Positions 24,581 to 48,196 of a stretch of DNA of 64,000 nt are shown piece after piece. Source of the stretch: Candidatus Atribacteria bacterium. Its GTDB lineage: Bacteria; Atribacterota; Phoenicimicrobiia; Phoenicimicrobiales; Stramentimicrobiaceae. Where the stretch lies: assembly GCA_029556475.1 (NCBI GenBank), contig JAKQEP010000007.1:1274-65273 (forward strand), in the 5' to 3' direction. The stretch's first letter is position 1; each line of letters opens with the position of its first letter. A program made the position numbers and the translations under genes. The notes under the pieces were generated by a model. That model was not told the DNA's origin. It was given only the letters and a program-made list of their open reading frames with translations, and searched no databases.

Positions 24581-24656
24581 TGGAGCCGGTGATCTGAGTC
24601 GAACAGACAACCTACGGATTACGATTCCGTTGCTCTGCCAATTGAGCTACACCGGC
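24581..24656 (-). tRNA. tRNA-Thr (anticodon CGU), CCA encoded
   Basis: 76-nt cloverleaf: acceptor GCCGGTG/CACCGGC, D arm GCTC-AATTGGCA-GAGC, anticodon arm ACGGA-ATCGTAA-TCCGT, T arm GTCTG-TTCGACT-CAGAT. Confidence 0.9.
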
Positions 24657-25345
24657 TCGTTATCTAACATTAATTTAAGCAAGAAAATTGTATCCTCTTT
24701 AAGTTTAGACTTAACCCAGGCTTTTTGTTTTTCATTTACCAATTCGCCTATTCCAGATAAAATACCACGCGTAGGTATTTCTTCCACAAATTTAATACAT
24801 TTTTTTAAATAATCAGCAAATCTCATTTTTGTCCTTTTTTCTATAATTGCTCTATTTATCTCCCAATCAGACTTAAGAAAATAATGTATGTCAAAAATAT
24901 CACGATTAGCTATTTTTCCACGTTCAGTCAGAGCAACTAATTTGTGAGCAAACATATCTTCTCTCCTTATAACCAACATAGAAATACCGAGATAATTTTT
25001 AACTTCATATTGCGAATTGAAGCTTCTTTTATTGATTTCAATTTTAATATTTTGTGCTTCTTCTGAATAAGAAAGTAGAAAAAAGAGAGTATTTCTTTTG
25101 TTTGTTTTTTCTTTAATTGTGCCATATTCCCTGGCTATTTCTTCTACTTTCTTGAAAACTTCCTGCTCCTTAACTTTTTTCAATAAATCAAAATCAAGAT
25201 CAACGGAAAAACGATCCAATCCGTAAAAAAGATATGCAGCTGTGCCACCTTTGAAACCCAAAAGAGGGCCAAGTGAACCATCTGTATAGATATCTTTTAG
25301 AATTTTAATCAAAATATTTTTATGAACTGTTATACCTAATGCCAT
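24647..25345 (-). CDS. AbiEii/AbiGii-family nucleotidyltransferase toxin (type IV TA, DUF1814)
   Basis: The N-terminal region LGFKGGTAAYLFYGLDRFSVDLDFDLL matches the AbiEii nucleotidyltransferase signature (GGTA...R.S.DLDF). It overlaps the upstream antitoxin-like gene by 26 nt. The last three sense codons and the TAG stop lie inside tRNA-Thr. Confidence 0.8.
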   Translation of the reverse strand: MALGITVHKNILIKILKDIYTDGSLGPLLGFKGGTAAYLFYGLDRFSVDLDFDLLKKVKEQEVFKKVEEIAREYGTIKEKTNKRNTLFFLLSYSEEAQNIKIEINKRSFNSQYEVKNYLGISMLVIRREDMFAHKLVALTERGKIANRDIFDIHYFLKSDWEINRAIIEKRTKMRFADYLKKCIKFVEEIPTRGILSGIGELVNEKQKAWVKSKLKEDTIFLLKLMLDNEPV

Positions 25346-25910
25346 ATCTTTTTAAAAAAGACTTAACTTCTTTCTCCATTCTTCTATTTGAATAAATGGG
25401 TAAAATTTCAAGAACCTTATTCCAATCCAAAACTGATAAATTATCAAAGGCATAATTTTTGTCTAAGTAAATTATATCCAGGAAAGCCCTTTCAGAAATA
25501 GCACCAAAATAATTATCTTTATACTCTATGCCGGCACTGTTAGTCAATATCGAATCTTTTATCTTTCTATAACGATAAGTTTGTCCATCTACCACTATCT
25601 CTCTACTTAAATATGAAGCGATAAATATTTGACCATAATGCTGGAAAGTAACACCTGCCTTACCCAGGATAGTTTCAAAACTAAGGTATGAAGGATTATA
25701 GATTTTAATAGCTAACTCATATTTGTTATAGTTTTTATCTTTTGCATAGAATCCTTTTCTTATCGAATATAGTTTACCCGCCTTAACATAACGATATATT
25801 CTCTTTTTAACAAGTCTGGTGTTCGATTCCTCCCAGAGCAAAGCAATATCCTTGGTAGAAAAAACAGTATTATTACTATGGTATAAGCCTAAAATCATAG
25901 CTTTTTTCAT
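25320..25910 (-). CDS. AbiEi-like antitoxin / transcriptional regulator (type IV TA)
   Basis: 196 aa, upstream of and overlapping the AbiEii gene. The N-terminal part is winged-helix-like (VFSTKDIALLWEESNTRLVKKRIYRYVKAGKLYSIRKGFY). The call rests mainly on context and architecture. Confidence 0.65.
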   Translation of the reverse strand: MKKAMILGLYHSNNTVFSTKDIALLWEESNTRLVKKRIYRYVKAGKLYSIRKGFYAKDKNYNKYELAIKIYNPSYLSFETILGKAGVTFQHYGQIFIASYLSREIVVDGQTYRYRKIKDSILTNSAGIEYKDNYFGAISERAFLDIIYLDKNYAFDNLSVLDWNKVLEILPIYSNRRMEKEVKSFLKRYGIRYNSS

Positions 25911-26146: not shown

Positions 26147-26180
26147 ACAAAAAATAGCAAGGGTCCTAGGGAACCCTTGC
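26147..26180 (-). terminator. Rho-independent terminator after the amidohydrolase gene
   Basis: Stem gcaagggt (26157-26164) / acccttgc (26173-26180). On the minus strand it is followed by TATTTTTTGT. Confidence 0.75.
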
Positions 26181-26255
26181 TCATAATGAAACAAAAACAA
26201 TTTTATTCTAATACTGAGTAATGTTCTTGTTATAGAAATAAATTAATAATAATAT

Positions 26256-27641
26256 TTATTTATTTCTGTTCAGTTTAATTATTTTTCCATAACCGGGGTT
26301 AACTTTGATTTCTCCCAGTTCATAGACTACCTGACCCCTGACTATAGTCTTTTCAGGTTGCCCATAGACTTCCCAGCCATCATAAACAACTGCACTATCC
26401 CTGCACTTGGTAAACATCTTCTCTTTATCAATAACCCCTTTTTTATGGGGGTCAATAATTACCAGATCGGCATCAGAGCCGGGCATAAGAACTCCCTTTT
26501 GAGGATATAAACCAAATATACGAGCAGGATTTTCACTGATTAAATGAACCATTTGCTCTAATTCCAGTTTTCCTTCTTTTACCGCGGTATACATTAAGGG
26601 CAGACGGGTAGATAAACCCGGGAACCCGGCAGGTGGAACAAAAATATCATCTTTCCCCTTTTCTTTCTCTTCTTTAGTATAGGGGGCATGGTCACTTCCT
26701 ATAAAATCAAAATAATCATTGGACAGATATTCCCACATTTTCTTTCGTTCTTCTTCTGACCTGACCGGGGGATTACATTTGGCAAAAGCTCCAAACTTTA
26801 TTAAAGCATCTTCATTTAAAAATAAATAATGGGGACAGGTTTCCGCTATGGCATACACCCCTTTTGCCTTAGCCTGTCTGACCAATTCAGCAGCTTCAGG
26901 AGTGCTGATATGGGCAATTTCCACTTTTGCTCCGGTTTTTTCTGCAAAAAGGAGAATTTTTGCAGTAGTTTCTATTTCAACTACCGGGGGGCGAGAACGT
27001 TCGTGGTAGATGGGAGAAACCTTTCCCTCTTTTTTTAGTCGACTGATATTTTTTTTAATCATATCATTATTTTCAGCGTGGAAAGCGGTAATCAAATCAG
27101 TATTGGCCAGGATTTCCATCAGTTCGTACTGGTCACCGGTATCAGGAGCAGTCAGGCCAATAAACTCTCCCTCTCTTCCGGCAGGGGCTTCGTGTAAAAA
27201 AGTTTTAAAGCCAACAATACCGGACTTAGAACAGGGAATAATGAATTCTTTTTTATCAATTCCAGCTGCACCAAAGAAGGCTATATCTACTACAGCTTCT
27301 TTTTCAGCCAAAGCCATCCTGTTCTGTACAATTTCAGGAGAATAAGGAGGAGGAGAAGAAATGGGCATTTCTAAAATGGTGGTCACCCCACCCAGGGCAG
27401 CCTCCTGTGTACCGGAAAGAAAGGTTTCTCTGTATTCATGTCCTGGAGCTCTGAGGTGCACATGGGGGTCAATGGTTCCAGGTAAGACCAGTTTATCCTG
27501 AGCATCAATTATCACATCCCCTTTTAGCTCATCAGTACTTATGGTGACTATAACCCCACCCTTTATGCCCATATTACAGTTCATTAAATGGTCATTAACG
27601 TACATCTGATTGGAACGTACTACCAAATCATATTTTTCCAT
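26256..27641 (-). CDS. Cyclic amidohydrolase of the allantoinase/hydantoinase/dihydroorotase superfamily
   Basis: Metal-binding DPHVHLRAPG and a carboxylated-lysine context GIVGFKTFL. The 461-aa length and the EMP...SPP segment look more allantoinase/hydantoinase-like than class-I PyrC. The substrate cannot be called from sequence alone. Confidence 0.75.
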   Translation of the reverse strand: MEKYDLVVRSNQMYVNDHLMNCNMGIKGGVIVTISTDELKGDVIIDAQDKLVLPGTIDPHVHLRAPGHEYRETFLSGTQEAALGGVTTILEMPISSPPPYSPEIVQNRMALAEKEAVVDIAFFGAAGIDKKEFIIPCSKSGIVGFKTFLHEAPAGREGEFIGLTAPDTGDQYELMEILANTDLITAFHAENNDMIKKNISRLKKEGKVSPIYHERSRPPVVEIETTAKILLFAEKTGAKVEIAHISTPEAAELVRQAKAKGVYAIAETCPHYLFLNEDALIKFGAFAKCNPPVRSEEERKKMWEYLSNDYFDFIGSDHAPYTKEEKEKGKDDIFVPPAGFPGLSTRLPLMYTAVKEGKLELEQMVHLISENPARIFGLYPQKGVLMPGSDADLVIIDPHKKGVIDKEKMFTKCRDSAVVYDGWEVYGQPEKTIVRGQVVYELGEIKVNPGYGKIIKLNRNK

Positions 27642-27829
27642 AAATAATCTTCTCCTTCAAAAAAAATATAAAACAACTATCCCTTCAATATCATCCTATT
27701 TTACTACTTGAATTCTTTCCAATACTTATGGTAAAGTACTTTTTTATCCCTCTAAGCCCCTATTTACAACCCAATAGCGTGAATGGGGGGATACAGCTCA
27801 ACTGTAGCACATTATTATATTGTTGAATA

Positions 27830-29248
27830 CTATTTGTTTAACAGGTCTTTTCTAGCTATACCGATATTGGTCATTTCATAAGGATCGAGAATTTTATTTA
27901 ATTTATCCTCATCCATAATCTTATATTTCAGGATAAGCTCTCTGACGCTCTTATCTTCTAAAAGTGCTTCCCTGGCAATAGCACAGGATTTCTCATAGCC
28001 AATATGAGGATTTAAGGCAGTTATTATTCCGATGCTCCTCTCTGCATATTCTTTGCATCTTTCTTCATTGGCAATTATCCCGTTGATACATTTTTCTCTA
28101 AGCATATTCTGAGCATTGGTCATTATGTCAAAACTTTGCATTAAATTAAAAGCCAGTACCGGTTCCATCACATTCAGTTCCAGCTGGCCAGCCTCAGTTG
28201 CCAGATTAATGGTAAGATCATTCCCCATAACCTGAAATACAACCTGATTGGTTGCCTCCAGAATTACCGGATTTACTTTTCCTGGCATTATGGAAGAGCC
28301 TGGCTGGACTTCTGGCAACTTAATTTCATATAGACCTGCCCGTGGTCCGGAAGCCATCAGCCTTAAATCATTACATATTTTTGATAAAACTACTGCCCAT
28401 GCTTTTATTGCCGATGATACCTCTACATAGGCATCAGCATTTTGAGTGCCATCTACTAAATCCTCCGCAACGTATAGATCGTACCCGGAAATTTCTCTCA
28501 AACTTTCCTCAACAAATCTAATATATTGGGGATCGGCATTAAGTCCGGTCCCTACAGCAGTGGCGCCCATATTGACACTCTTCAGGCTCTGAACAGCAAG
28601 AGATATTCTCTCTTTGGACCTTTTAGCAGCAGTGGCATAGGCATTGAATTCCTGCCCTAATCGTATGGGAACGGCATCCTGCAAATGAGTTCTTCCCATT
28701 TTTAATACATGGTCAAACTCCTTTGCTTTTGCACGGAAAGTTTGTTCTAATTTCTCAGTTGCCTCCAGCAATGCTTCTGTTTTTATTAAAAGCGCTATTC
28801 GAATTGCGGTGGGAACTGCATCATTGGTTGATTGAGCCATATTGACATGGGTCAGGGATGAAATAACAGAACTGTCGCCTTTTTCCCCTTCTCCATATAA
28901 CTCTATTGCTCTGTTAGCAATTACCTCATTGGCATTCATATTGTTGGAAGTACCAGCTCCCCCCTGAATCGGGTCTAACACAAAGTGTTCATCCAGTTTT
29001 CCATCGATAACTTCCTGTGAAGCACTGATGATTGCCTTTGCACGCCTTTCATCGAGCAAGCCAGTCTTCTGATTAGCTATAGCAGCTGCTTTTTTTACTA
29101 TCCCTAATGCTTTAATAAAATCTCTATCTATTCTGTAACCTGTGAGTTTAAAGTTTTCTTGTGCCCTTAAGGTCTGTATACCATAGTACACCTCATCAAG
29201 TACTTCTCTCTTTCCCAGTAGATCTTGTTCGATTCGATATTTTGTCAT
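27830..29248 (-). CDS. aspA: Aspartate ammonia-lyase
   Basis: Fumarase/aspartase signature GSSIMPGKVNP. The N-terminus YRIEQDLLGKREVLDEVYYGIQTLRAQENF and QLELNVMEPV favour aspartase over fumarase. Confidence 0.8.
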   Translation of the reverse strand: MTKYRIEQDLLGKREVLDEVYYGIQTLRAQENFKLTGYRIDRDFIKALGIVKKAAAIANQKTGLLDERRAKAIISASQEVIDGKLDEHFVLDPIQGGAGTSNNMNANEVIANRAIELYGEGEKGDSSVISSLTHVNMAQSTNDAVPTAIRIALLIKTEALLEATEKLEQTFRAKAKEFDHVLKMGRTHLQDAVPIRLGQEFNAYATAAKRSKERISLAVQSLKSVNMGATAVGTGLNADPQYIRFVEESLREISGYDLYVAEDLVDGTQNADAYVEVSSAIKAWAVVLSKICNDLRLMASGPRAGLYEIKLPEVQPGSSIMPGKVNPVILEATNQVVFQVMGNDLTINLATEAGQLELNVMEPVLAFNLMQSFDIMTNAQNMLREKCINGIIANEERCKEYAERSIGIITALNPHIGYEKSCAIAREALLEDKSVRELILKYKIMDEDKLNKILDPYEMTNIGIARKDLLNK

Positions 29249-29582
29249 TTTTAATTTTCTCCTTATATTTTATTTTCCCCATCATTTTTCAAAATCCAAT
29301 TAATATGAACACAAAAAAGTTAACTTAAAAAACAATTCTATACTGAACTAATCGTAATCGCTTTTTCTATTGAGCTAATTCTTATAGTATTCTCATAATA
29401 TTTCTTTTTCAAGGAAATGATGGGAATATTTTTATTTTCCGGATTAAAAATTGGTTAAAAGTTTGTTTTTACAATCAGTGGCTATTTAAAGTTGCTCAAA
29501 GAATATTTTGAATAGACAGGGAGGATTTATACCATAGAGGCTGCAATCCTCCCTATCTTATTTTCTATCTATACAGCTATTT

Positions 29583-30812
29583 CTATCTGTCTTTCCAGGC
29601 AGGTGCCGGATAGAGGGGCTTATTGCCCTGAGATTCTTCAGGATAAACAATTATATATTTACCATTTTGAACCTGAACTACCGGATGCACCCATTTTATA
29701 TTCTGACCCTTCTCATTGAAGGCTACAGGTGACCAGCAAGATAGTTCAACATCAAGACTGGCTAAAGCATCCCTTACTTTTTCAGTTTCAATGGAATCAG
29801 CCTTTTCTATGGCCATCTGTAATAAAACTCCAACAGCGGAACCGCTTGAGGTCCAGTATTGTGGCTTAAAGTTTTCTCCATGCAGGTCTTTGCAAGCCTT
29901 TATATAGTCAGCAGTGGTTCCAAAGATATGGTCCTCGCTCTTCATTTCGGGAACCCACCATTCCCCTTCGACAAGATAATCAGCATCTTTGCCCATTTCT
30001 TCCACAAAGCCAGTTACCATAGCACCAACCGAGCTGGCAAACAGTTTGGGACTAAAATCTAATTCCTTGCATTGTCTAACAATCATCATGTCATCTGCAG
30101 TATATCCCCCTCCTGCTAAGACATCGGGATTCAAAGCTTTAACCTTGGTTAAAAGAACTGATAAATCTGTGGCACCAGCAGGGTATTTTTCATAAAGGAC
30201 AACCTCAAATCCTAATTCCTCGCAAATTTCTTTGAATCCATCAGCAACACTGAGTGGGAACAGGTCATTGGCAGGTATAATTGCCACTGTCTTTGGTCTT
30301 GGCTCTAACATGGTATCCATCATATAGGCAATAGGAACCATTATCATAGGAGCTGGCGGCAGGACAGAGAAAATGTATTTATATCCCCTTTCATATATGT
30401 TAACAGCATTTGCCTCGGGCGCAATGGTAATAACGCCATACTTTTCACCAATAGATGAGGTGGCAAAAGTAATAGAGCTGGAATAAGGGCCTCCTAAGAA
30501 ATGAACCTTATCTTCAGTAATCAGTTTCTCAGTCAATCTTGCCCCACGTACCGGGTCGCTCTCATCATCATAATAGATAATTTTGACACCATAGGTTTTA
30601 CCCCCGGCTTTAATACCACCATGTTCGTTAACCCATTTTTCCCAGACTTCATATCCCTGCTTAACTAAAATACCTTCATAAGCAGTTTTACCGGTAAGGG
30701 AGACGGCTGCACCAATCTTGATAATATCATCAAATGATTGGGCAAATGTAATTCCCACTACTGAAAACAGAAATATGCTTACCAAAAATGCTAAAGATAA
30801 TTTTTTAATCAT
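29583..30812 (-). CDS. ABC transporter periplasmic substrate-binding protein (LivK/type-I PBP family), ligand unknown
   Basis: Signal peptide MIKKLSLAFLVSIFLFSVVGITFAQS and a Leu/Ile/Val-binding-protein-like fold signature (KIGAAVSLTGKTAYEG). I chose the start at 30812, which has ggagg upstream, over 30842. Confidence 0.8.
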   Translation of the reverse strand: MIKKLSLAFLVSIFLFSVVGITFAQSFDDIIKIGAAVSLTGKTAYEGILVKQGYEVWEKWVNEHGGIKAGGKTYGVKIIYYDDESDPVRGARLTEKLITEDKVHFLGGPYSSSITFATSSIGEKYGVITIAPEANAVNIYERGYKYIFSVLPPAPMIMVPIAYMMDTMLEPRPKTVAIIPANDLFPLSVADGFKEICEELGFEVVLYEKYPAGATDLSVLLTKVKALNPDVLAGGGYTADDMMIVRQCKELDFSPKLFASSVGAMVTGFVEEMGKDADYLVEGEWWVPEMKSEDHIFGTTADYIKACKDLHGENFKPQYWTSSGSAVGVLLQMAIEKADSIETEKVRDALASLDVELSCWSPVAFNEKGQNIKWVHPVVQVQNGKYIIVYPEESQGNKPLYPAPAWKDR

Positions 30813-30974
30813 TGTTGTATTTTTCCTCCATTTATTCTTCATTTACCATTAACAATTTAATCCATAATTTATATATAGATTATACCACCTCCTTGTTTAT
30901 AAATTCATTGCCTGGTATTATTGGCTTATCATTTTAGCAGTAAAATTGCATTAAGATATTTTTAAAAAGCCTTT

Positions 30975-31703
30975 TTAGGCAATACCCAGATAAGCAGTCT
31001 TTATGTGCTTATTTTTGGCCAGTTTATCACTGCTGTCCTGCATAACTGAATGACCGCTTTCCAATACATAACCACGGTCAGCAACATCTAAAGCTACCTG
31101 TACATCCTGCTCCACTATCAGTATGGTAATCCCCTCTTTATCTCTTAATTTAACGATTGTTTCAATTAAATCATCTACAACCACCGGTGCCAAACCCAGG
31201 GACAGTTCATCAATGATAAGAAGTGTAGGTTTAGACATAAGCGCACGACCAATAGCACACATTTGTTGTTCTCCTCCGGAAAGATTTCCGGCAAATTTTT
31301 TCCTATACCCCTTCAAAGGTTTGAACAGGTTATAGACGAAATCAAGGTCTGACAGAATTTCTTTTTTGCTGTATTTTCGCTGAAAGGCCCCCATAAGAAG
31401 GTTATCTTCCACAGTCAAACCAAAAAAAAGATGTCTTCCTTCCGGTGCAAAGCCAATTCCTCTTTTAATACGTTCCGGGGCAGGTAAGTTAGTTATATTT
31501 TGATTGAAATACTTTATTTCTCCTTTAAAGGGAATTACCATGCCGACAATATTTTTTAGCAAGGTGCTTTTTCCAGCACCATTTGCTCCGATAATACAGA
31601 CAATTTCTTTACTTTTTAATTCTAAATTGATATCCCATAAAACCTGAATTGCCCCGTAACCAGAATTCAAATTATTAATCTCCAATAAATGGTCATTTTT
31701 CAT
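30975..31703 (-). CDS. Liv-type ABC transporter ATP-binding protein (LivF-like)
   Basis: Walker A GANGAGKST, signature LSGGEQQM, Walker B LIIDELS. Confidence 0.85.
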   Translation of the reverse strand: MKNDHLLEINNLNSGYGAIQVLWDINLELKSKEIVCIIGANGAGKSTLLKNIVGMVIPFKGEIKYFNQNITNLPAPERIKRGIGFAPEGRHLFFGLTVEDNLLMGAFQRKYSKKEILSDLDFVYNLFKPLKGYRKKFAGNLSGGEQQMCAIGRALMSKPTLLIIDELSLGLAPVVVDDLIETIVKLRDKEGITILIVEQDVQVALDVADRGYVLESGHSVMQDSSDKLAKNKHIKTAYLGIA

Positions 31704-32467
31704 CAGCCACTTATAACCTCCTTGGCATACTTTTTCCCTAAATAAGCTTCAATAACAGCCGGGTTGTCACATACTTCTGTTGGCGAGCCCTCACAAATTT
31801 TCTGCCCGTGGTGCAACACGATTATTCGGTCTGAGATTCCCATCACTGCCTTCATAATATGTTCAATATAAACAATGGTTAATTGTTTTTCAGCTCTAAT
31901 ATTTTTAACCAATTCCATTGACTCTTCAACTTCAGAAGGGTTAAGCCCGGCCATAACCTCATCCAAAAAGATAACCTCCGGGTCCATAGCTAAAACCCTG
32001 GCAAATTCCATTCTCTTTAAATCGGGAAGCGTAACATCGCTTACCTTAGAATCTTTCTTTTTCTCCAATCCCACCAATTCCATAATATGATGGGTAGTTT
32101 TTCTGGCACTGTTTAAATCATTTTCCCTATCACTGCGACCAAAAAGAGAGCCAACTAATATATTCTCTTCCACAGTCATACCCTGTAATGGTTTTACCAC
32201 CTGATATGTTCTGGTTAGGCCAATACGGGCAATCTGAAATGGTTGCATATTGCTCACATTGATACCCTTAAAATGTACTTCTCCTTCTGTTTTTCTTAAT
32301 TCACCGGTAACCAGATTAGTTATTGTTGTTTTTCCCGCACCATTAGGACCAATTAAACCGACAATTTCTCCCTTTTTTACCTGAAAGTTAACCTTATCCA
32401 CCGCTTTTAGAGCGCCAAAATGTTTGCTAATTGATCTGACATCTAAAATAACGCCATTATCAGACAT
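31703..32467 (-). CDS. Liv-type ABC transporter ATP-binding protein (LivG-like)
   Basis: Walker [10 protein letters not shown], Walker [11 protein letters not shown] and a LivG-like C-terminus [10 protein letters not shown]. Confidence 0.85.
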
Positions 32468-33443
32468 TGGTCACCTCCGTTTTTTTACTTAATTTAATTC
32501 TCCTGTTCCTCATCTTATCGGTTATCGTGCCAATAAGTCCTCTGGGAATAAAAAATACTATTATTATAGTAGCAATACCTAAAGCTGCCAGATGATACTG
32601 CATAAACCCACTCCAGGCTACCTCTGATACCGTTTCTACGATAAATGCGCCAAATATGGGACCCAATATAGTACCAGCGCCACCAATAAGCATCATTATT
32701 ATAGAATTTGTGATAAACATCAGGTCGAATACCTCATCTGGGGCTATAAAGGACATCCAGTAACCATACAGACCACCAGCAATGCTGGTAAACATAGCAG
32801 CTATAGCCCAGGTAGACACTTTTGTAAAAGTGGTATTTATTCCCATAGAATTAGCTGCATCTTCATTTGCTTTAATGCTTCGAATCCCGAAACCAAATTT
32901 TGAATTGACAATCATATTCATTACCAATGATGTAATTACCATCAGTCCAAACATTGCCAGGTAAAAATATTTGTAAACAACTGCAGGCGGGACAGTAATA
33001 ATAGGAAAAGTTGTTCCTCTGGCTCCCCCGGTAATTTCAGTGGCATTCTGCACAACTGTCATTATTGCTCCATTCATACCGATAGTGGCGATGGCAAAAT
33101 AATGTCCTCTCAATCTCAGTACTGGAAAACCTAAAATTATACTAATCACAATGGCACAAAAACAGGCTGCCGGAATTGCTACAAAAACAGGTAACCCGGT
33201 TTTCATTAAAATGGCACTTATATAAGCTCCTATGCCAAAGAACATAACATGGCCAAAAGGTAGATATCCCATATAGCCAGACATTAAATTGATACATTGG
33301 GCAATGGTGGCATACATAAAAATTGCTGTGAATATACGGGTATAATACCCAGAAATATAATTGGGTAATAGAATAAAGATTATAAGGGCAGCAACAATCA
33401 GAATTATGTTTATATTTAATTTTCTGTCATTTTGTGCTATCAC
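32460..33443 (-). CDS. Liv-type ABC transporter permease (LivM-like)
   Basis: Polytopic membrane protein with motifs such as GYMGYLPFGHVMFFGIGAY. It overlaps the downstream ATPase gene by 8 nt. Confidence 0.8.
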   Translation of the reverse strand: MIAQNDRKLNINIILIVAALIIFILLPNYISGYYTRIFTAIFMYATIAQCINLMSGYMGYLPFGHVMFFGIGAYISAILMKTGLPVFVAIPAACFCAIVISIILGFPVLRLRGHYFAIATIGMNGAIMTVVQNATEITGGARGTTFPIITVPPAVVYKYFYLAMFGLMVITSLVMNMIVNSKFGFGIRSIKANEDAANSMGINTTFTKVSTWAIAAMFTSIAGGLYGYWMSFIAPDEVFDLMFITNSIIMMLIGGAGTILGPIFGAFIVETVSEVAWSGFMQYHLAALGIATIIIVFFIPRGLIGTITDKMRNRRIKLSKKTEVTNV

Positions 33444-33487
33444 TTATCTCACACTTCCTTCCTTTAAAAATAGTTCCCTAATAATGA

Positions 33488-34357
33488 CTAACCAAAGAAT
33501 TTCTTCCCTATTAAACCATGTGGTCTTAATAGTAATACCAGAACCATTATGACCAGTCCGATAGCTTCCTGCCAGTGAGAGCCTATAAAGATGGCCCCTG
33601 ATGTTTCTACAAAGGCTAATAATAGCCCACCGGCAGCAGCTCCCCAGATATTCCCTAACCCCCCTAAAATGGCAATAATAAAGACCCTGCCTATTATTAC
33701 ATCCATAACATGAGGAGAAAAGCTGTAAATGGTTGCCCATAGGGTTCCCGTAACTCCTCCCAGGGCAGTGCCCAGGGCAAAATTTATTAAATACATCTTC
33801 TGGTCATCAACCCCTACTGCCATCGCTCCTTCTTTATCTAAAGCGACTGCCTGTATCCCTTTCCCAATTTTAGTATTCATCATAAACTGATAGGTAAGAT
33901 AGATAATCACCCCGGCTATTATGAAGGTCAAAAATTTAGTTAAAGGAACAAAGGCTCCTAAAAATTGGAAATTGCTTCCGGCATAGCTTACCCTGATAGT
34001 ACGATAGTCTGCAGACCAGACCAGAAGTATTATATTTTCTATTATTAATCTGATGGCAAAAGTAACAATAAGAGTAAAGACAATACCGCCTTTAAGGAGA
34101 GGCTGAAGTGTGAATCGATATATAAAAGCACCTAATAAAAACAATATAGCCCCGGTAACAAACATACTGATGAAGGGGTCTATATGAAACATATTGAAAA
34201 TGATTAAAGAGAGATAAGAACCGAGCAATACCATAGCGCCATAGGATAGATTAATAATGCCGCTTATCCCCCATTGCAAAGAAAATCCTATTCCCATCAA
34301 TGCATACAACCCCCCTAAAAGAAGCGCATTGACGAACATCTGCAAACCCAATCCCAT
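33488..34357 (-). CDS. Liv-type ABC transporter permease (LivH-like)
   Basis: 289-aa polytopic protein. The N-terminus LQMFVNALLLGGLYALMGIGFSL is typical of LivH. Confidence 0.8.
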   Translation of the reverse strand: MGLGLQMFVNALLLGGLYALMGIGFSLQWGISGIINLSYGAMVLLGSYLSLIIFNMFHIDPFISMFVTGAILFLLGAFIYRFTLQPLLKGGIVFTLIVTFAIRLIIENIILLVWSADYRTIRVSYAGSNFQFLGAFVPLTKFLTFIIAGVIIYLTYQFMMNTKIGKGIQAVALDKEGAMAVGVDDQKMYLINFALGTALGGVTGTLWATIYSFSPHVMDVIIGRVFIIAILGGLGNIWGAAAGGLLLAFVETSGAIFIGSHWQEAIGLVIMVLVLLLRPHGLIGKKFFG

Positions 34358-34421
34358 TTAATTCCTCCTTGAATTTTCAATTTTAGCAATAGTTATAAAT
34401 AGAACAAAAGTATATAGAACA

Positions 34422-35336
34422 CTACTTTATCAAACCAACAATATCTTTTACTGATTTATATTTTTTTTTGTTGAGATACCCTGCAATCCCTTCAATAATA
34501 TTTAGCATTACATAAGGATTGCTAAAATTAGCACTTCCAACCTGAACGGCACTAGCTCCTGCTAAGAACATTTCCAGGGCATCCCGGGTGCTGGTAATTC
34601 CTCCTACCCCAACAATTGGTATTTTCACCCTTTGGCTGGCTTCCCAGATCATCCGCACAATAATCGGTCTAATGCCCGGACCTGATATCCCCCCCACCTT
34701 ATTCCCTAACCTCGGTATTAGTTTTTCTGAATCTATTGCCATACCCAGGAAAGTGTTAGCAATAATGATAATATCTGCACCTGCCTCTTCAGCTGTCAGA
34801 GCCATTTCGGTAATATCAGTTACATTAGGAGATAGCTTTGCCATCACCACTTTTCCAGTATTCTTTTTAAGCTGATAAATTAAATCTCCCAAAACATCTT
34901 TATTGGTACCAAAATATAAACCATCGTTTAGATTTGGGCAGGATAAATTTATCTCCAAGGCTGAAATCTTCTCAAAATTATCCAATTTTTTTGCCAGCTG
35001 GCAGAAATCAGTAATGGAGTCTCCCACCATACTTACAATAATTGGTACACAAAAGTCTTCTAATAAGGGTAATATGTTTTCTTTAAAGTATTCAAATCCT
35101 TCAGCAGGAATTCCTACCGCATTCATCATTCCGGCTTCTGTTTCCCAGATGCGGGGACCGGGATTACCCAGTCTTTTATGTGAGGCAATGCTTTTGGTGA
35201 TGATGGCACCTAAAGAGTTCAGCTGTTCTTTGTTGAGTATAGTATCTCTGATATCAAAAGTACCAGAGGCAGGCATAACTGGATTTTTTAACTGTAGATT
35301 GCCTAAGTTTATTGACAAGTCCACTTTATTATTCAT
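34422..35336 (-). CDS. pyrD: Dihydroorotate dehydrogenase class 1B, catalytic subunit
   Basis: LKNPVMPASGTF start region, the Cys-containing loop LSCPN and GGISGPGIRP. It overlaps pyrK by 8 nt. Confidence 0.9.
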   Translation of the reverse strand: MNNKVDLSINLGNLQLKNPVMPASGTFDIRDTILNKEQLNSLGAIITKSIASHKRLGNPGPRIWETEAGMMNAVGIPAEGFEYFKENILPLLEDFCVPIIVSMVGDSITDFCQLAKKLDNFEKISALEINLSCPNLNDGLYFGTNKDVLGDLIYQLKKNTGKVVMAKLSPNVTDITEMALTAEEAGADIIIIANTFLGMAIDSEKLIPRLGNKVGGISGPGIRPIIVRMIWEASQRVKIPIVGVGGITSTRDALEMFLAGASAVQVGSANFSNPYVMLNIIEGIAGYLNKKKYKSVKDIVGLIK

Positions 35337-36132
35337 TTAAAATTACCTCTTCTAAAGGAAAAACCGGCCCTTCTTTACAAACTCTTTGATAACCATAAAT
35401 AGTATTTATGACGCAACCTTTACAGGCACCTATCCCACAGCCCATTCGTTCTTCCAGGCTGATATAAGCGGCAAAATGGTATTCTTTCTGTAATTCTCTT
35501 ATATGCCTTGCTAACCTTTTTGAACCGCAAACATAAACGGCTTCAAAATCCGTTCTGTTATTTTTAAGTAATTCTTCTAAGAAAAAAGTCACCTTCCCAT
35601 CTGTTCCTTTCCAATCATCATCTGTGGTATAAAAAATATGGGAAGAGAGTGGCCCCAGTTTATCTGGTCCCAGTAATAAGTTTTTTTCTCGGGCGGACAG
35701 GAAACTGTAAATCTCTAATCCCTTCTTTTTACCCTCTATGGCTAAAGGAAGAAGAGTAGCTACTCCTATTCCCCGGGCAACCAGGGCAATTTTCCCTACA
35801 TTTTCAGGAAGGGAAAAACCATTTCCACAGGACCCAATCAATTCTACCTGGTCTGCTTTCTTTGATTGCGATAATATTTCAGTACCCTTCCCGATCTTTT
35901 TATATAAGATAGCAAATCTTCCCTGTTCAGCATCAATCTGATAAAAACTGAATGGTCTCTTTAGAAAAAGGTTATTAATGTTCCACCTGGAGAGCATTAC
36001 AAATTGGCCTGGTCGTGCATTCCTGGCTATATCAGGTGCCTCAATAACTATTTCAAAATAATCACCATTAATATTTCTATTCTCTAATACTTTACCTGTA
36101 ACAAATAAAGGCTTATTTTCAGCAGATTTCAT
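35329..36132 (-). CDS. pyrK: Dihydroorotate dehydrogenase class 1B, electron-transfer (FAD/2Fe-2S) subunit
   Basis: Ferredoxin-reductase-like fold (RPFSF) and a C-terminal cluster motif MGCGIGACKGCV. Confidence 0.85.
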   Translation of the reverse strand: MKSAENKPLFVTGKVLENRNINGDYFEIVIEAPDIARNARPGQFVMLSRWNINNLFLKRPFSFYQIDAEQGRFAILYKKIGKGTEILSQSKKADQVELIGSCGNGFSLPENVGKIALVARGIGVATLLPLAIEGKKKGLEIYSFLSAREKNLLLGPDKLGPLSSHIFYTTDDDWKGTDGKVTFFLEELLKNNRTDFEAVYVCGSKRLARHIRELQKEYHFAAYISLEERMGCGIGACKGCVINTIYGYQRVCKEGPVFPLEEVILNE

Positions 36133-36210
36133 TCATTTCCCAATCTTTTCATTTTTTATAGGTTCTTTTTATAAGCCAGTCAAGGAAATAAAAGGAACCA
36201 AACAAACTTT

Positions 36211-37134
36211 TTATCTTACACCACTGACCAGTGCTAGCAAAGCCATTCTAACAAAGATTCCATTATGAGCCTGGCGGAAATATGCTGCTCCTTCATAATC
36301 ATCAAGATCAGTTGAAATCTCGTCTACCCTTGGCAGGGGATGGAGAACAGTAATTCCTTTTTTAGCTTTATTGATAGTGTTCCGGTCAATAATGTAGGAA
36401 CCTTTTAGTTTTTCATATTCTTCAGGGTTGTTAAATCTTTCTCTCTGTATACGGGTAACATAAACTATATCACTCCTGGAAAGGGCTTCTGACACATTAT
36501 CAGTTTCTTCTATTTCAGCTCCACGACTTCTAAAATCAGCCGTTAATTCTTCGGGCATACGAAGAGATTCCGGGGAAACAAAAATCATTTTATTCTTATA
36601 CATAGTCATAAAGTAACCCAGGGAATGAACAGTTCTACCATATTTTAAATCTCCTAAGAAAGTTATGGTATGCCCTTCTAAAGAACCCTTCTCTTTTCGG
36701 ATAGTATAGATATCCAAGAGAGCCTGGGTGGGATGCTGTCCACTGCCATCACCAGCATTTATAACCGGATGCCGGGCATTATCTGCGGCAATACGGGCTG
36801 AACCAATCTCAGGATGCCTCATAACAATAACATCTATATATCCATCTATTGTTCTGATAGTATCAACCAGAGTTTCACCTTTGGCTGTGGAAGAGCTACC
36901 GGCACTGGAAACACTGATAACTCTGGCTCCTACCCTATTGGCAGCTGATTCAAAGGATAGTCTGGTCCTGGTACTTGGTTCAAAAAACAGACAGGCAACG
37001 ACCCTTCCATCCATATCCCTGATTATTTCATAATTTTTGACCTTCTGTTCATAATCTGCAGCGGTGTCCATAATTAAACTTAGTTCGTCAATTGAAAACT
37101 GAGCAGTGTTTAAAATATCTTTACCCTTTAACAT
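36211..37134 (-). CDS. pyrB: Aspartate carbamoyltransferase catalytic chain
   Basis: STRTRLSFE carbamoyl-phosphate motif, HPTQALLD and HPLPR. No pyrI is adjacent. Confidence 0.9.
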   Translation of the reverse strand: MLKGKDILNTAQFSIDELSLIMDTAADYEQKVKNYEIIRDMDGRVVACLFFEPSTRTRLSFESAANRVGARVISVSSAGSSSTAKGETLVDTIRTIDGYIDVIVMRHPEIGSARIAADNARHPVINAGDGSGQHPTQALLDIYTIRKEKGSLEGHTITFLGDLKYGRTVHSLGYFMTMYKNKMIFVSPESLRMPEELTADFRSRGAEIEETDNVSEALSRSDIVYVTRIQRERFNNPEEYEKLKGSYIIDRNTINKAKKGITVLHPLPRVDEISTDLDDYEGAAYFRQAHNGIFVRMALLALVSGVR

Positions 37135-37199
37135 TTTGATACTTCCCTTCTTTTTAATTATTATATTTTATTATTATATAATTTTTTTATCTGATAGTC

Positions 37200-37949
37200 T
37201 TAACCTATCAATTTAGAAATTTCATTACCGGCAGCTACCACCAGTTGAATAAGAAAACTATTGCTCCTAACCGGAACTTTACCCAACAATCCCACAACAG
37301 TAATACTGGCTTCAATCTTTCCATTCACATTTTTAATGGGGGCAGAAATAGCCCTGATTCCTTCTTCCAGCTCTTCATCACAGATGGCATAACCCTGAGT
37401 TTGAATCTTTTTAAAATGGATAATAAGAGTCTCCGGTTCAGTTATGGTCTTGGAAGTATATCTTTTTAATTCCGTGCTGTTAACTACTCTGGAGATTTCT
37501 TCCGGTGATTGGTAAGCCAGGAGTATTTTAGAGGCAGCGGCACAATGATAGGGCATTATTTTACCAACCTCTACAAAGAGGTTTCGGGAACCAAGTTTAT
37601 GTGAGGAGCTTACCGAATCTATACAAATCCCATTATCATCCTGCCATATACTTAAAAAAGTAGTCAAACCAGTATTTTCACTGATTCTTTTTAGAATATC
37701 TTTAGAATATTCTCTTAAATCAAAGGAACTATAAAAGGAGTGAGCATATCTTAATAGCTGTATCCCTAATCTGTATTTGGAGGTCTCCAGGTCTTTGCTG
37801 ACCAGAGAATATTTCATTAAAGATTTTAAAATACGGTGTACTGTACTTTTAGGAATGGACAATTTTGAACTTATCTCAGTAACTCCTAATTTACCGTCTG
37901 TATCGCTAAGGCAATTGAGGATTTGAATGGTTTTTTCTACTGAGTTCAT
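37200..37949 (-). CDS. IclR-family transcriptional regulator
   Basis: N-terminal wHTH (LGVTEISSKLSIPKSTVHRILKSL) plus a C-terminal IclR effector domain. 249 aa. Confidence 0.85.
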   Translation of the reverse strand: MNSVEKTIQILNCLSDTDGKLGVTEISSKLSIPKSTVHRILKSLMKYSLVSKDLETSKYRLGIQLLRYAHSFYSSFDLREYSKDILKRISENTGLTTFLSIWQDDNGICIDSVSSSHKLGSRNLFVEVGKIMPYHCAAASKILLAYQSPEEISRVVNSTELKRYTSKTITEPETLIIHFKKIQTQGYAICDEELEEGIRAISAPIKNVNGKIEASITVVGLLGKVPVRSNSFLIQLVVAAGNEISKLIG

Positions 37950-38350
37950 AAAATGATTAATTCCTTAATTCCATATTGTGGAACATGGTTTCATTATTAC
38001 GAATAATCACTTTATGATAATAACATACTACGACTATTAAGTCAATTTTTTTAATTATGGTTAATTTTCCAGATTGTGCCCCGGACGAGAGTTTGTGAGT
38101 TACTTTTGACACATTATCTATAGATAATTTCTATTAATCATTAGTTTGCGTTACCTTATTATTTTCAATACGTTAAAAAACAAGAATCTGGCTTAAATAT
38201 TTTTTAACCAATTTTTGAGTTAAACGCAATTGCGGTAATATATCAGTAAGATATTATGAGGATAGAGCTATCCATTGTGGAAAATAGGGAAGGAAGCGTA
38301 TTGAGGAAAGATGTTTTATTATATTGAATTTTAATATTTTTTATAAAAAA

Positions 38351-38427
38351 TGGTAGGCGGAACAGGACTTGAACCTGTGACCCCCTACATGTGAAGCAGG
38401 TGCTCTGCCGACTGAGCTATCCGCCCA
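38351..38427 (-). tRNA. tRNA-Val (anticodon CAC), CCA encoded
   Basis: Acceptor GGGCGGA/TCCGCCT (G1-U72), D arm GCTC-AGTCGGCA-GAGC, anticodon arm CCTGC-TTCACAT-GTAGG, T arm ACAGG-TTCAAGT-CCTGT. My hand fold gives 77 nt, with one extra nucleotide between the D and anticodon stems. This needs tRNAscan confirmation. Confidence 0.75.
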
Positions 38428-38436
38428 TAATAAAAT

Positions 38437-38580
38437 GGTTATTAGTATTTAGTCGTTTGTCGTAGTATTTGGTATTAAAGTTTTTGGTTTATAGTTCTTA
38501 GTTTTTGGTCAAACATTCATAGCATTAAAGGATATCCTCTTTATTCTTCATTAAAAACTTAAAACAATGAACTAAAAACC
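38437..38580. repeat. Heptamer array (11 phased units, 38437-38513) and an inverted partner array (38549-38580) between tRNA-Val and tRNA-Glu
   Basis: tggttat tagtatt tagtcgt ttgtcgt agtattt ggtatta aagtttt tggttta tagttct tagtttt tggtcaa. The opposite-orientation run is ttaaaaacttaaaacaatgaactaaaaacc. Confidence 0.85.
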
Positions 38581-38609
38581 TTATTGCCTACAATTATTCT
38601 AAAATAAAT

Positions 38610-38685
38610 GGTGCCTCCAAGGGGATTTGAACCCCTGCCGCCGCCGTGAAAGGGCGGTGTCCTTAACCCCTAGACGATGGAGGCA
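38610..38685 (-). tRNA. tRNA-Glu (anticodon UUC), CCA encoded
   Basis: Acceptor GCCTCCA/TGGAGGC, anticodon arm CCGCC-CTTTCAC-GGCGG, T arm AGGGG-TTCAAAT-CCCCT. 76 nt. Confidence 0.9.
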
Positions 38686-38691
38686 ATGATT

Positions 38692-38767
38692 GGTAGGCCG
38701 TGCAGGCCTCGAACCTGCGACCCTCTGATTAAGAGTCAGATGCTCTACCTACTGAGCTAACGGCCCG
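38692..38767 (-). tRNA. tRNA-Lys (anticodon CUU), CCA encoded
   Basis: Acceptor GGGCCGT/ACGGCCT (G1-U72), anticodon arm TCTGA-CTCTTAA-TCAGA, T arm GCAGG-TTCGAGG-CCTGC. 76 nt. It lies 6 nt upstream of tRNA-Glu. Confidence 0.9.
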
Positions 38768-47185: not shown

Positions 47186-48196
47186 TCAACATATTCTGGG
47201 AAGCTGCTCTCCGCTAAGCATTCCCACTATTCTCTTTCCACCGATTTCAGTTAGAAGATATACCTCCGCCTTCCCCCGGGCAACTACTCTCCCTATAATA
47301 GCCGCCTGTTCTCCATAACAACTTTTTTTCATCTTTTCTAACACCTTTTCTGCATATTGCTCTGGCACAAAGGCAATCAATTTCCCCTCATTGGCTAAAT
47401 AGAGAGGGTCATAACCTAAAATTTGACAGGTATCTTTTACAGCCTCGTCCATAGGGATTTTTACTTCCCCAATTTCTATTTCAACCTGAGAAGATTGGGC
47501 AATTTCATTTAAAGCAGTAGCCAGACCTCCTCTGGTAGGATCACGCAGCACATGTATCTCTCTGGTTATGGACAACATCTGTTGAACCAAATCTGCCAGT
47601 GGGGCAGTATCACTCGGTATACTCTCTTCCAGCTCCAAATTTTCGCGGGAGGCAAGTATGCTGATACCATGATTTCCGATGGGACCGTTGATCAGAATGA
47701 AATCGTTGACCTGTGCCCTGGCGGGATTAATATCAACATCTAAATCAATATAACCAATACCTGTGGTATTTACAAATATTCCATCAACATCACCCTTATT
47801 TACCACCTTGGTATCTCCGGTAACAATTAGAATGTCGGTTTGTTGTGCCGCCTCAGCCATACTGGAGGTAATCTGTTCCAGGGCATACATTGAGGTACCC
47901 TCTTCAATAATCAGTGATACACTAAGATATTTTGGAATAGCCCCACACATAGCTAAATCATTTACAGTACCATGTATTGCCAGTTTACCTATATCTCCTC
48001 CATTAAAAAATATGGGGCTCACAGTGTATGAATCTGTGGAAAAGGCAATTTTTTTATCTGATGGTGGTAATATTGCTCCATCATGCAGCTGATTTAAGAA
48101 AGGATTATTAAAATATCTTAAAAAAAGGGAGCGAATAAGCTGATTGCTTAATTTCCCGCCGCTTCCATAATCAAGAGTAATAATATCTTCCGTCAT
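47186..48196 (-). CDS. hypE: [NiFe]-hydrogenase maturation protein HypE
   Basis: AIR-synthase-like fold and a C-terminal ...LPRIC, which carries the cysteine that bears thiocyanate. Confidence 0.9.
   Translation of the reverse strand: MTEDIITLDYGSGGKLSNQLIRSLFLRYFNNPFLNQLHDGAILPPSDKKIAFSTDSYTVSPIFFNGGDIGKLAIHGTVNDLAMCGAIPKYLSVSLIIEEGTSMYALEQITSSMAEAAQQTDILIVTGDTKVVNKGDVDGIFVNTTGIGYIDLDVDINPARAQVNDFILINGPIGNHGISILASRENLELEESIPSDTAPLADLVQQMLSITREIHVLRDPTRGGLATALNEIAQSSQVEIEIGEVKIPMDEAVKDTCQILGYDPLYLANEGKLIAFVPEQYAEKVLEKMKKSCYGEQAAIIGRVVARGKAEVYLLTEIGGKRIVGMLSGEQLPRIC

Follow-up and report, generated by a model that had tools for sequence, protein, structure and literature searches.

The 64,000-nt stretch of contig JAKQEP010000007.1 considered here (referred to below as the window; Candidatus Atribacteria bacterium, assembly GCA_029556475.1) has a GC content of ~37% and carries nearly all of its genes on the minus strand. 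Its sequence is identical to that of a JGI metagenome contig, and its relatives place it in an Atribacterota genome of sludge or digester origin. Between positions 26256 and 37949, it bears a cluster of 11 intact, co-directional minus-strand genes in which enzymes of the pyrimidine pathway are combined with an ABC importer: iclR, an aspartate carbamoyltransferase (ATCase) gene without pyrI, pyrK/pyrD, livHMGF, a binding-protein gene, aspA, and a gene for a cyclic amidohydrolase. Hidden Markov model scans of the window proteins recovered all 11 genes, intact and on one strand, at the positions given for them in an earlier note that had been made from the sequence alone. We assign a probability of roughly 0.55 to the reading that the cluster, under the control of its regulator, takes up an acidic cyclic ureide and uses it by the first steps of pyrimidine synthesis run in reverse; the likeliest substrates are orotate and/or (S)-dihydroorotate. 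The note had already suggested a catabolic orotate/carbamoyl-aspartate locus, and this suggestion is now the best supported one, owing to the adjacency of carbamate kinase in relatives, the paralogy of PyrD, the accessory genes, and the binding protein, with the reservation that the window itself has no carbamate kinase.

The cluster starts with the gene for an IclR-family transcriptional regulator (249 aa, 37200..37949; Pfam HTH_IclR and IclR_C), followed by those for the catalytic chain of an ATCase of the archaeal/E. coli type (307 aa, 36211..37134; TIGR00670), a PyrK-like FAD/2Fe-2S electron-transfer subunit (267 aa, 35329..36132; Pfam DHODB_Fe-S_bind), and the catalytic subunit PyrD of a class 1B dihydroorotate dehydrogenase (DHOD; 304 aa, 34422..35336; NF005574). 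The importer block (30975..34357), assigned by Pfam, encodes LivH (33488-34357), LivM (32460-33443), LivG (31703-32467), and LivF (30975-31703), and it is followed by the genes for a substrate-binding protein (419 aa, 29583..30842; Pfam Peripla_BP_6), aspartate ammonia-lyase AspA (472 aa, 27830..29248; NF008909), and the cyclic amidohydrolase (461 aa, 26256..27641; TIGR00857), all on the minus strand. The overlaps and gaps reported earlier hold, including 8 nt shared by pyrK and pyrD; livM and livG also overlap by 8 nt and livG and livF by 1 nt. The 334-nt gap between the binding-protein gene and aspA was found as described, with a very stable minus-strand hairpin at 29514..29558, 3′ of the binding-protein gene, detected by its folding energy (-28.1 kcal/mol, z = -6.3 against shuffles). 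Because this hairpin has no U tail, it probably stabilises the mRNA or stops transcription only in part, and a promoter-like site revealed by a consensus scan lies downstream of it (29384-29412). The cluster is closed after the amidohydrolase gene by the strong intrinsic terminator that had been noticed before (26156..26181, minus strand; an 11-bp stem with six G-C pairs and then a T run).

Other genes of the pyrimidine pathway do not accompany this set. By tblastn, the 64-kb window contains no carbamate kinase, pyrE, or pyrF, and no annotated gene of the window matches carAB, pyrI, or pyrR, none of which was searched by name; the only CarB-sized candidate that was checked, an open reading frame (ORF) of 1027 aa, is AcrB. 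The earlier statement that carAB, pyrE, pyrF, and pyrR are lacking is thus borne out by search for pyrE and pyrF and by ORF annotation only for carAB and pyrR. An Rfam scan of the window returned tRNAs only, with neither a PyrR element nor a riboswitch.

Much of what can be said about the function of the cluster comes from its relatives. A set of 90 loci, numbered with the prefix L, was assembled from look-ups of binding-protein homologues and one scan of species-representative genomes and mapped by tblastn, a cluster being counted as orthologous if its binding protein was at least 66% identical to that of the window. Orthologous clusters are present in ~20 species, in Atribacterota-type metagenome genomes. 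In the full form, the order is IclR, carbamate kinase, ATCase, PyrK, PyrD, LivHMGF, and binding protein, and then (fumarase, malic enzyme), AspA, (AFOR-family enzyme, hydantoin/allantoin racemase), amidohydrolase, (phosphoenolpyruvate carboxykinase, PEPCK). The accessory fumarase is of class II, and the racemase has its nearest matches among allantoin and hydantoin racemases, allantoin racemase being the first of them. AspA occurs in only half of the relatives' loci that span this region, where the AFOR-family gene and the racemase are more constant: they precede the amidohydrolase in seven of the eight loci that reach it (L009, L011, L012, L017, L021, L022, and L031). Neither of the two is found in the window by tblastn; the window represents a trimmed variant, which has kept AspA and lacks the kinase, the racemase, and the AFOR-family gene. 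PyrKD, in turn, is missing from the clusters of L016 and L030. The fumarase, malic enzyme, PEPCK, and racemase genes would fit a pathway in which aspartate is broken down stoichiometrically and the ring substrate can be racemised. Like accessory islands, the cluster has genomic surroundings that change from one species to another.

Two side observations concern the same loci. The AFOR-family protein, a tungsten-type oxidoreductase of 642 aa, scores 217 bits against a cut-off of 868. In addition, clusters 66–80% identical to those of Atribacterota carry the labels Eubacteriales, Caldisericota, Verrucomicrobia, and Actinomycetota (L003, L007, L015, and L019), for which mis-binning or recent transfer is possible.

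The transferase scores 374 bits with TIGR00670 (cut-off 237), contains the Pfam domains OTCace_N and OTCace, and has its closest solved matches in the enzymes of Pyrococcus abyssi (1ml4, 334 bits) and Methanocaldococcus jannaschii (309 bits). It bears the motifs STRTR, HPTQ, RIQRER, and HPLP, which are kept in all 14 of the 14 cluster orthologues. Since these agree with the set S[TR]RT, HP[ST]Q, HP[LG]P, and RxQ that is tabulated for the genuine ATC II (PyrB) family (Table 1 of Barba et al., PMC4016543), its motifs mark the protein as a genuine ATCase, distinct from a “pseudo-ATCase” like ureidoglycine transcarbamylase. All aspartate-binding motifs being kept and AspA being adjacent, the product should be aspartate rather than β-alanine or ureidoglycine. 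No pyrI-like ORF for the regulatory chain of a class B holoenzyme adjoins the ATCase gene, either in the window or at the related loci.

In 9 of the 12 loci that show the region upstream of the ATCase orthologue, the gene immediately preceding it encodes carbamate kinase (L003, L007, L010, L012, L016, L017, L021, L030, and L031), a true one according to its scores of 372–379 bits with TIGR00746 (cut-off 358). Adjacency of carbamate kinase has been described as the feature that separates catabolic from anabolic transcarbamylases in a 2018 review that lists just three established catabolic ones (PMC6022934), and a 2015 review of the family (PMC4581275) says of a catabolic ATCase with carbamoyl-aspartate as its energy source that it “remains to be proven”. 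No cluster of the present kind was found described in the literature on orotate fermentation genes or catabolic ATCase.

The cyclic amidohydrolase is more difficult to classify. It passes only TIGR00857 (pyrC_multi; 295 against 279), which is a subfamily-domain model, and fails all dihydroorotase equivalog models. Its best NCBIfam model is that of hydantoin-5-propionate amidohydrolase (ErtD; 365 against a cut-off of 650), the cut-off of the allantoinase model TIGR03178 is narrowly missed (342 against 358), and the best solved match is the L-hydantoinase of Arthrobacter (1gkr, 259 bits), ahead of dihydroorotase 3mpg (195 bits). The protein nevertheless carries DPHVHLRAPG, a dihydroorotase-type HxHxR motif. 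HVHLRAPG is the same in every cluster orthologue and recurs in the canonical PyrC of L033, whereas the dihydropyrimidinase-like enzymes encoded at the Spirochaetota loci described below do not have it. In dihydroorotases, the Arg of HxHxR binds the carboxylate of the substrate, and the Asn of the MPN loop is a dihydroorotase feature as well. The corresponding loop of the amidohydrolase, EMPISSPPP, is hydantoinase-like and without this Asn. An alignment with the allantoinase of Bacillus halodurans (3hm7) places HVHLR opposite HVHFN, i.e., Arg for Asn, with other residues there in hydantoinases, and ISS opposite the LNS of the allantoinase MPLNS loop. An earlier judgement that the enzyme looks more like an allantoinase or hydantoinase than like PyrC needs the correction that the HVHLR motif is present beside the hydantoinase-like features; by sequence, the protein is a hybrid, hydantoinase-like overall, with the HxHxR motif of dihydroorotases. 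A dihydroorotase activity is supported by a Synergistaceae pyr operon (L026), where an orthologue 66% identical follows pyrB and so occupies the slot of PyrC.

Assignment of AspA is straightforward: NF008909 gives 681 against a cut-off of 510, TIGR00839 gives 655 against 681, and the fumarase model scores far lower. No ureidosuccinase-type amidase was seen among the cluster's own genes, either in the window or in those related loci whose gene content was listed, and carbamoyl-aspartate would most likely be split through phosphorolysis by ATCase and not by a hydrolase of this type.

PyrD is recognised by NF005574 (351 against 269) and TIGR01037 (324 against 270) and has the catalytic Cys in LSCPN. 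PyrK stays below every equivalog cut-off, its best NCBIfam PyrK score being 181 against 219; it has the Fe-S domain, the RPFS motif, and the four C-terminal Cys residues and appears to be a divergent PyrK. In a phylogenetic tree, the cluster PyrDs form a clade of their own with a support of 100 and a long stem, apart from the housekeeping PyrDs of Atribacterota, which group with clostridial PyrDs; the tree separates three clades and leaves the relations among them unresolved. Identity between cluster and housekeeping PyrDs is 41%, as against 61–80% among the cluster orthologues; the cluster PyrD is an old paralogue of the housekeeping enzyme. A housekeeping pyrF-pyrK-pyrD-pyrE operon is present in relatives in addition to the cluster. 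The two are arranged tail-to-tail in L002/L003/L004, a pyrE orthologue stands beside the cluster in L031, and elsewhere in Atribacterota pyrFKDE has a conserved neighbourhood of its own, including the assembly with L016 and L089, whose cluster is devoid of PyrKD.

The importer has been annotated as Liv-type. Its subunits belong to Pfam BPD_transp_2 (two genes) and ABC_tran (two genes), with BCA_ABC_TP_C, and all remain below the equivalog cut-offs for LivHMGF and UrtBCDE. The binding protein reaches only 101 with the LivJ-type model NF011933 (cut-off 477); its closest solved relative is SAR11_0655 (137 bits by phmmer, compared with at most 70 bits for LivJ/LivK), and a structural model of it (pLDDT 88) matches SAR11_0655 in Foldseek with E = 1e-28. 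SAR11_0655 of Pelagibacter (PDB 8WCH) has been shown to bind L-pyroglutamate with a Kd of <5 nM (PMC11485210). A branched-chain amino-acid importer was considered and ruled out by the model scores and the nearest solved relatives; the binding protein does not cluster with branched-chain amino-acid binders. The likeness to SAR11_0655 lies in sequence and fold, in the Liv annotation, in the nature of the ligand as a cyclic amide carboxylate, and in the position of the gene next to that of a ring-opening enzyme. The two proteins are, however, only ~28% identical, and the neighbour of SAR11_0655 is 5-oxoprolinase, whereas PyrDK, the amidohydrolase, and ATCase are the neighbours in the window.

Transporter genes aside, the neighbour most often met next to this binding-protein family, among the proteins that were searched for, is PyrK-PyrD, in Atribacterota, in Synergistaceae, and in ~20 loci of Spirochaetota. 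The Spirochaetota loci (e.g., L027, L046, L056, L069, and L070) consist of LivHMGF, a binding protein 42–55% identical to that of the window, and PyrK-PyrD; no ATCase was found in any of them, and some add a dihydropyrimidinase-like hydrolase and genes of the xanthine dehydrogenase family on the other strand. With PyrKD as the most frequent partner, the ligand is most simply taken to be a substrate or product of PyrD and not aspartate. On the strength of family and fold comparisons, we propose as the putative ligand a carboxylate of a cyclic amide or ureide, for example orotate or dihydroorotate.

Different transcarbamylases have been brought together with a homologous importer in Syntrophaceae/Thermodesulfobacteriota. 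In L040 and L049, genes for ornithine carbamoyltransferase, a dihydropyrimidinase-like hydrolase, a genuine ATCase (56% identical), carbamate kinase, and a pseudo-ATCase with SNRT and QIP motifs form a row that points away from an IclR gene and from the genes of a homologous Liv importer, and the three transferases share one kinase. The loci L033, L090, and L091 of a small Atribacterota lineage begin with two PLP enzymes, a YgeY-type M20 hydrolase, and a YgeW/OTC-like carbamoyltransferase and continue with PyrK-PyrD, LivHMGF, a binding protein (46%), and a Bacillus-type PyrB translationally coupled to a type I PyrC. Their architecture matches that of the window cluster, although neither ATCase nor dihydroorotase is orthologous to the enzymes of the window. 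Finally, L026 combines an aspartate-aminotransferase-like gene with pyrK-pyrD-pyrF-pyrE-livHMGF, followed by the genes for a binding protein 60% identical to that of the window, a Bacillus-type PyrB, and the amidohydrolase.

A putative signal for control of the unit lies upstream of iclR. A promoter-like site (TTGACT, 17 nt, TG-TATTAT; 38017..38045, minus strand) was detected by a consensus scan with 10 of 12 matches and an extended -10 TG, and in an alignment of eight orthologous iclR upstream regions both the -35 and the extended -10 are conserved. Within 37950-38000, where an IclR operator had been thought worth looking for, a conserved IclR-type palindrome lies at 37969..37993 on the minus strand: the candidate operator TGAAAC-N4-GTTCCA-N5-TGGAA, a set of palindromes that overlap one another, located after the -10 element and before the start codon of iclR. 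The exact palindrome TTCCACAATATGGAA has a single occurrence in the window, and the operator consensus ATGGAACAnTGTTCCATATTATGGAAC is present at the same position upstream of iclR in L003, L005, L007, L010, L012, L017, L021, and L030. In the relatives, the composite palindrome reads TGGAAC-N4-GTTCCA-N5-TGGAAC, again between promoter and start codon, and it resembles the classical IclR box. Such a position implies, as far as sequence conservation can tell, autoregulation by IclR of a unit that starts with iclR. No further copy was found within three mismatches anywhere in the window, including the regions upstream of the ATCase gene and of aspA, so aspA and the amidohydrolase gene may use a promoter of their own or be reached by read-through from upstream. 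Among the NCBIfam models, IclR itself comes closest to those of the catabolic regulators BhcR, PcaR, KdgR, and AllR, without reaching the cut-off of any of them, and control by IclR without a PyrR element or riboswitch favours catabolism.

Expression of such a cluster is documented by contigs of a sludge metatranscriptome that are 90–97% identical to the window and cover ATCase, PyrK, PyrD, LivF, the binding protein, AspA, and the amidohydrolase, with the highest values over the binding-protein gene. The contigs belong to a related strain; the cluster of a close relative is thus transcribed in situ, and such RNA contigs speak to transcription, not to regulation or the inducer.

The data establish the gene identities and motifs, the conservation of synteny, the paralogy of PyrD, the operator, and in situ transcription in a close relative; it is by inference that the following scheme names a ligand, gives the flux a direction, and assigns a fate to carbamoyl phosphate. 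An IclR repressor bound to the conserved operator in front of iclR would control the unit. The ring compound would be imported by the Liv-type ABC system, the binding protein of which is pyroglutamate-binder-like. PyrDK would work as an NADH:orotate reductase and convert orotate to dihydroorotate, the ring of which would be opened to N-carbamoyl-L-aspartate by the amidohydrolase with its dihydroorotase-type carboxylate-binding Arg; both class 1B DHOD and dihydroorotase are reversible. ATCase, acting as a carbamoyl-aspartate phosphorylase, would then use phosphate to release L-aspartate and carbamoyl phosphate, a phosphorolysis that is less uphill than that of citrulline in the arginine deiminase pathway. 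AspA would turn aspartate into fumarate and ammonia. In the relatives, carbamate kinase would convert carbamoyl phosphate to ATP, CO2, and NH3, and fumarase, malic enzyme, and PEPCK would pass the carbon on to pyruvate or phosphoenolpyruvate; malic enzyme would give back the NAD(P)H spent by PyrDK, which would make the fermentation redox-balanced. In the source genome, carbamoyl phosphate would go to a kinase encoded elsewhere or to arginine synthesis or HypF.

The scheme has parallels in several known systems. Clostridium oroticum was reportedly shown by Lieberman and Kornberg in the 1950s to ferment orotate via dihydroorotate and carbamoyl-aspartate. The biochemistry of that time defined its enzymes as orotate reductase, dihydroorotase, carboxymethylhydantoinase, and ureidosuccinase, and no gene cluster for this fermentation was found in the papers that were searched. 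The intermediates proposed here (orotate, dihydroorotate, N-carbamoyl-aspartate, and aspartate) would be the same, a class 1B DHOD would likewise serve as orotate reductase, and hydantoin-related genes accompany the cluster in relatives. The organisms differ, being Atribacterota, and so does the last step: ureidosuccinase splits carbamoyl-aspartate hydrolytically, whereas the cluster has ATCase and no such amidase, which together with the carbamate kinase of relatives implies phosphorolysis and conservation of ATP. In its logic, the cluster corresponds to the arginine deiminase pathway (ArcB-ArcC), the agmatine deiminase pathway (putrescine transcarbamylase), and the ureidoglycine transcarbamylase of Rubrobacter xylanophilus, where an enzyme of the OTC/ATC fold (the fold of ornithine and aspartate transcarbamylases) cleaves a ureido compound with phosphate, an upstream hydrolase makes the ureido substrate, and carbamate kinase is adjacent, as it is in most relatives of the cluster. 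Unlike these modules, the cluster has a genuine ATCase by motif, its ureido substrate would be carbamoyl-aspartate, and its window version is without carbamate kinase. The arginine deiminase pathway usually uses an antiporter, in place of which the cluster has an ABC importer dependent on a substrate-binding protein.

The pyr operon of Bacillus (pyrR-pyrP-pyrB-pyrC-pyrAA-pyrAB-pyrK-pyrD-pyrF-pyrE) also combines genes of the pyrB, pyrC, pyrK, and pyrD types with an embedded uptake gene, and L026 looks alike. The window cluster deviates from it in lacking pyrE and pyrF (by search) and pyrR and carAB (by ORF annotation only), in being under IclR control, and in having an archaeal-type ATCase, a hydantoinase-like amidohydrolase, and AspA; the relatives add carbamate kinase, racemase, fumarase, malic enzyme, and a separate pyrFKDE operon.

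What favours catabolism is comparative genomics, the support coming from the relatives and not from the window itself, and a number of points weigh on the other side. The kinase missing from the window is also missing from the cluster in L005/L006 and L013. An ATP-driven importer would eat up much of the ATP gained from carbamate kinase. In L026, importer and amidohydrolase are placed among anabolic pyr genes, an arrangement that looks biosynthetic or salvage-oriented and tells us that the importer can belong to an operon with the irreversible anabolic steps PyrE and PyrF. With the Bacillus-type PyrB of L033 as a query, no second ATCase was found in the cluster-bearing lineages: this protein has ~10 close relatives only, after which identity drops to 58–60% in other phyla, and the Bacillus-type PyrB/PyrC pair occurs in one small Atribacterota lineage only, there after a PyrKD-Liv-binding-protein module. 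The ATCase and amidohydrolase of the cluster may then be the sole ones in the lineages that bear it and hence be needed for synthesis. Moreover, carAB was reported to be absent from 15 Atribacteria single-cell genomes (Bird et al. 2019, PMC6469976), which leaves room for carbamate kinase acting anabolically. An anabolic or amphibolic role is thus possible.

Taken to its end, this argument turns the cluster into the front end of de novo pyrimidine synthesis: carbamate kinase (in relatives) would provide carbamoyl phosphate; orotate would arise through ATCase, the amidohydrolase in the role of dihydroorotase, and PyrDK; aspartate would be formed from fumarate by AspA; and the importer would bring in aspartate or a precursor. 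Such a role is unlikely, though far from negligible. Besides the reported lack of carAB and the fact that no second, housekeeping-type ATCase family was found for the cluster-bearing lineages, it can invoke the reversibility of all reactions of the set, the closeness of the ATCase to that of P. abyssi, a host long thought to use a carbamate-kinase-like synthetase, and the amidohydrolase, with its HxHxR motif and its orthologue after pyrB in an operon with pyrF and pyrE. It leaves unexplained, however, why there is a second, divergent PyrKD in relatives that already have one in pyrFKDE, and why a hydantoin racemase, which has no anabolic role, is present in seven of the eight relatives that reach the amidohydrolase; fumarase, malic enzyme, and PEPCK exceed the needs of pyrimidine synthesis. 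Nor does it agree with IclR control, for no pyrimidine-sensing element was found, or with the differing position of the cluster between species. The binding protein resembles a pyroglutamate binder and not an amino-acid binder, and in Spirochaetota its family partners PyrKD without any ATCase. An aspartate-supply arrangement, in which AspA and the importer feed ordinary biosynthesis, had been put forward in the earlier note as the alternative; it is weakened but keeps some probability. In Thermococcus kodakarensis, an organism without the synthetase, the source of carbamoyl phosphate is a catabolic ornithine transcarbamylase rather than carbamate kinase (PMC13260591), which speaks against the anabolic use of the kinase. 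By analogy, if ATCase ran in reverse on an imported ureide, the cell could gain energy as well as carbamoyl phosphate.

Two further readings retain a catabolic direction and change the substrate. The main import could be racemic 5-carboxymethylhydantoin (hydantoin-5-acetate) or a related hydantoin, with the amidohydrolase as a carboxymethylhydantoinase yielding carbamoyl-aspartate and PyrDK as a side entry for orotate or in another role. C. oroticum does have a carboxymethylhydantoinase, the amidohydrolase finds ErtD and an L-hydantoinase as its best NCBIfam and solved matches, respectively, its EMPISSPPP loop resembles the L-hydantoinase sequence, the racemase and AFOR-family genes precede it in seven of eight relatives, and the L016 and L030 clusters do without PyrKD. 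Yet the window has PyrDK and neither racemase nor AFOR-family gene, the ErtD cut-off is widely missed, the amidohydrolase family fills the PyrC slot of the Synergistaceae operon, and it is PyrKD, not the racemase, that most often accompanies the binding protein among the proteins searched for; we therefore hold this substrate to be rather improbable. Allantoin degradation, through allantoinase, ureidoglycine or oxamate carbamoyltransferase, and carbamate kinase, has even less to recommend it, fits poorly, and is ruled out here, save for a very slight chance, on the motifs of transferase and amidohydrolase. Its attraction lies in the 342 bits of the amidohydrolase, near the 358 cut-off of the allantoinase model, and in the relatives' racemase, closest to allantoin racemase. 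The transferase, however, has RxQ and HPLP and is without the HPLA and AIA of the characterised ureidoglycine enzyme; in the amidohydrolase, Arg takes the place of an Asn of the B. halodurans allantoinase, and the Asn of the MPLNS loop is missing; and PyrDK and AspA have no role in allantoin breakdown. As for oxamate, AllFGH has an unrelated fold. It is as AllFGH that the real oxamate transcarbamylase of E. coli is reported (PMC11326118). An allantoin pathway was what Bird et al. read from adjacent “allantoinase”, “oxamate carbamoyltransferase”, and carbamate kinase genes of Atribacteria (PMC6469976). If the gene families in question are the same as here, the motifs would argue for carbamoyl-aspartate instead.

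The surroundings of the cluster are as follows. The 928-nt gap upstream of iclR contains genes for tRNA-Val, tRNA-Glu, and tRNA-Lys (38351-38766), which had been overlooked earlier, with dnaB and the L9 gene farther upstream; on the downstream side are an AbiEi/AbiEii pair, tRNA-Thr, ksgA, spoVG, glmU, and prs. tRNA genes thus flank the cluster on both sides, tRNA-Thr (24581-24656) at one end and the three tRNAs at the other. The AbiEi-like/AbiEii toxin-antitoxin pair (24647-25910) lies directly past the cluster terminator, and its 3′ end overlaps tRNA-Thr by ~10 nt. Immediately upstream of iclR, L005/L006 (1-2630) contain genes for an NMT1/THI5-type binding protein, a permease, and an ATPase, and in L010, L012, L021, and L030 only ABC ATPase genes, 33–45% identical to LivF/LivG, were seen there; the window has nothing comparable. 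HypE and HypF, which participate in [NiFe]-hydrogenase maturation, are encoded ~10-12 kb upstream of the cluster (47186-48196 and 49685-51982), and HypF is known to use up carbamoyl phosphate (PMC13260591).

Uptake and reverse-pathway use of orotate or dihydroorotate, if true, would provide a gene basis for orotate fermentation, the biochemistry of which has been known since the 1950s. It would also revise the published “allantoin” reading for Atribacteria, which are dominant in subsurface sediments and anaerobic digesters, and would bear on the source of carbamoyl phosphate in a phylum reported to be without carbamoyl-phosphate synthetase. Tentatively, and with clearly less confidence than for uptake and reverse use as such, one may go further and see in the cluster the long-postulated catabolic ATCase, with imported orotate or dihydroorotate passing backwards through DHOD, dihydroorotase, and ATCase. 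Carbamate kinase would then conserve energy in an ATP-yielding, redox-balanced fermentation to pyruvate, and, because of this reported lack of the synthetase, the reverse reaction of ATCase would be the sole source of carbamoyl phosphate for arginine synthesis and [NiFe]-hydrogenase maturation. The cluster offers clonable candidates for each function: ATCase, carbamate kinase, the paralogous PyrDK, the dihydroorotase-like hydrolase, the binding protein, and the regulator with its operator. It is also a warning for annotation, since pyrB/pyrC/pyrD calls in such clusters do not necessarily mean biosynthesis, and “Liv” importers do not necessarily transport branched-chain amino acids. The finding should be of interest both for the catabolism of nitrogen heterocycles and for the physiology of Atribacterota.

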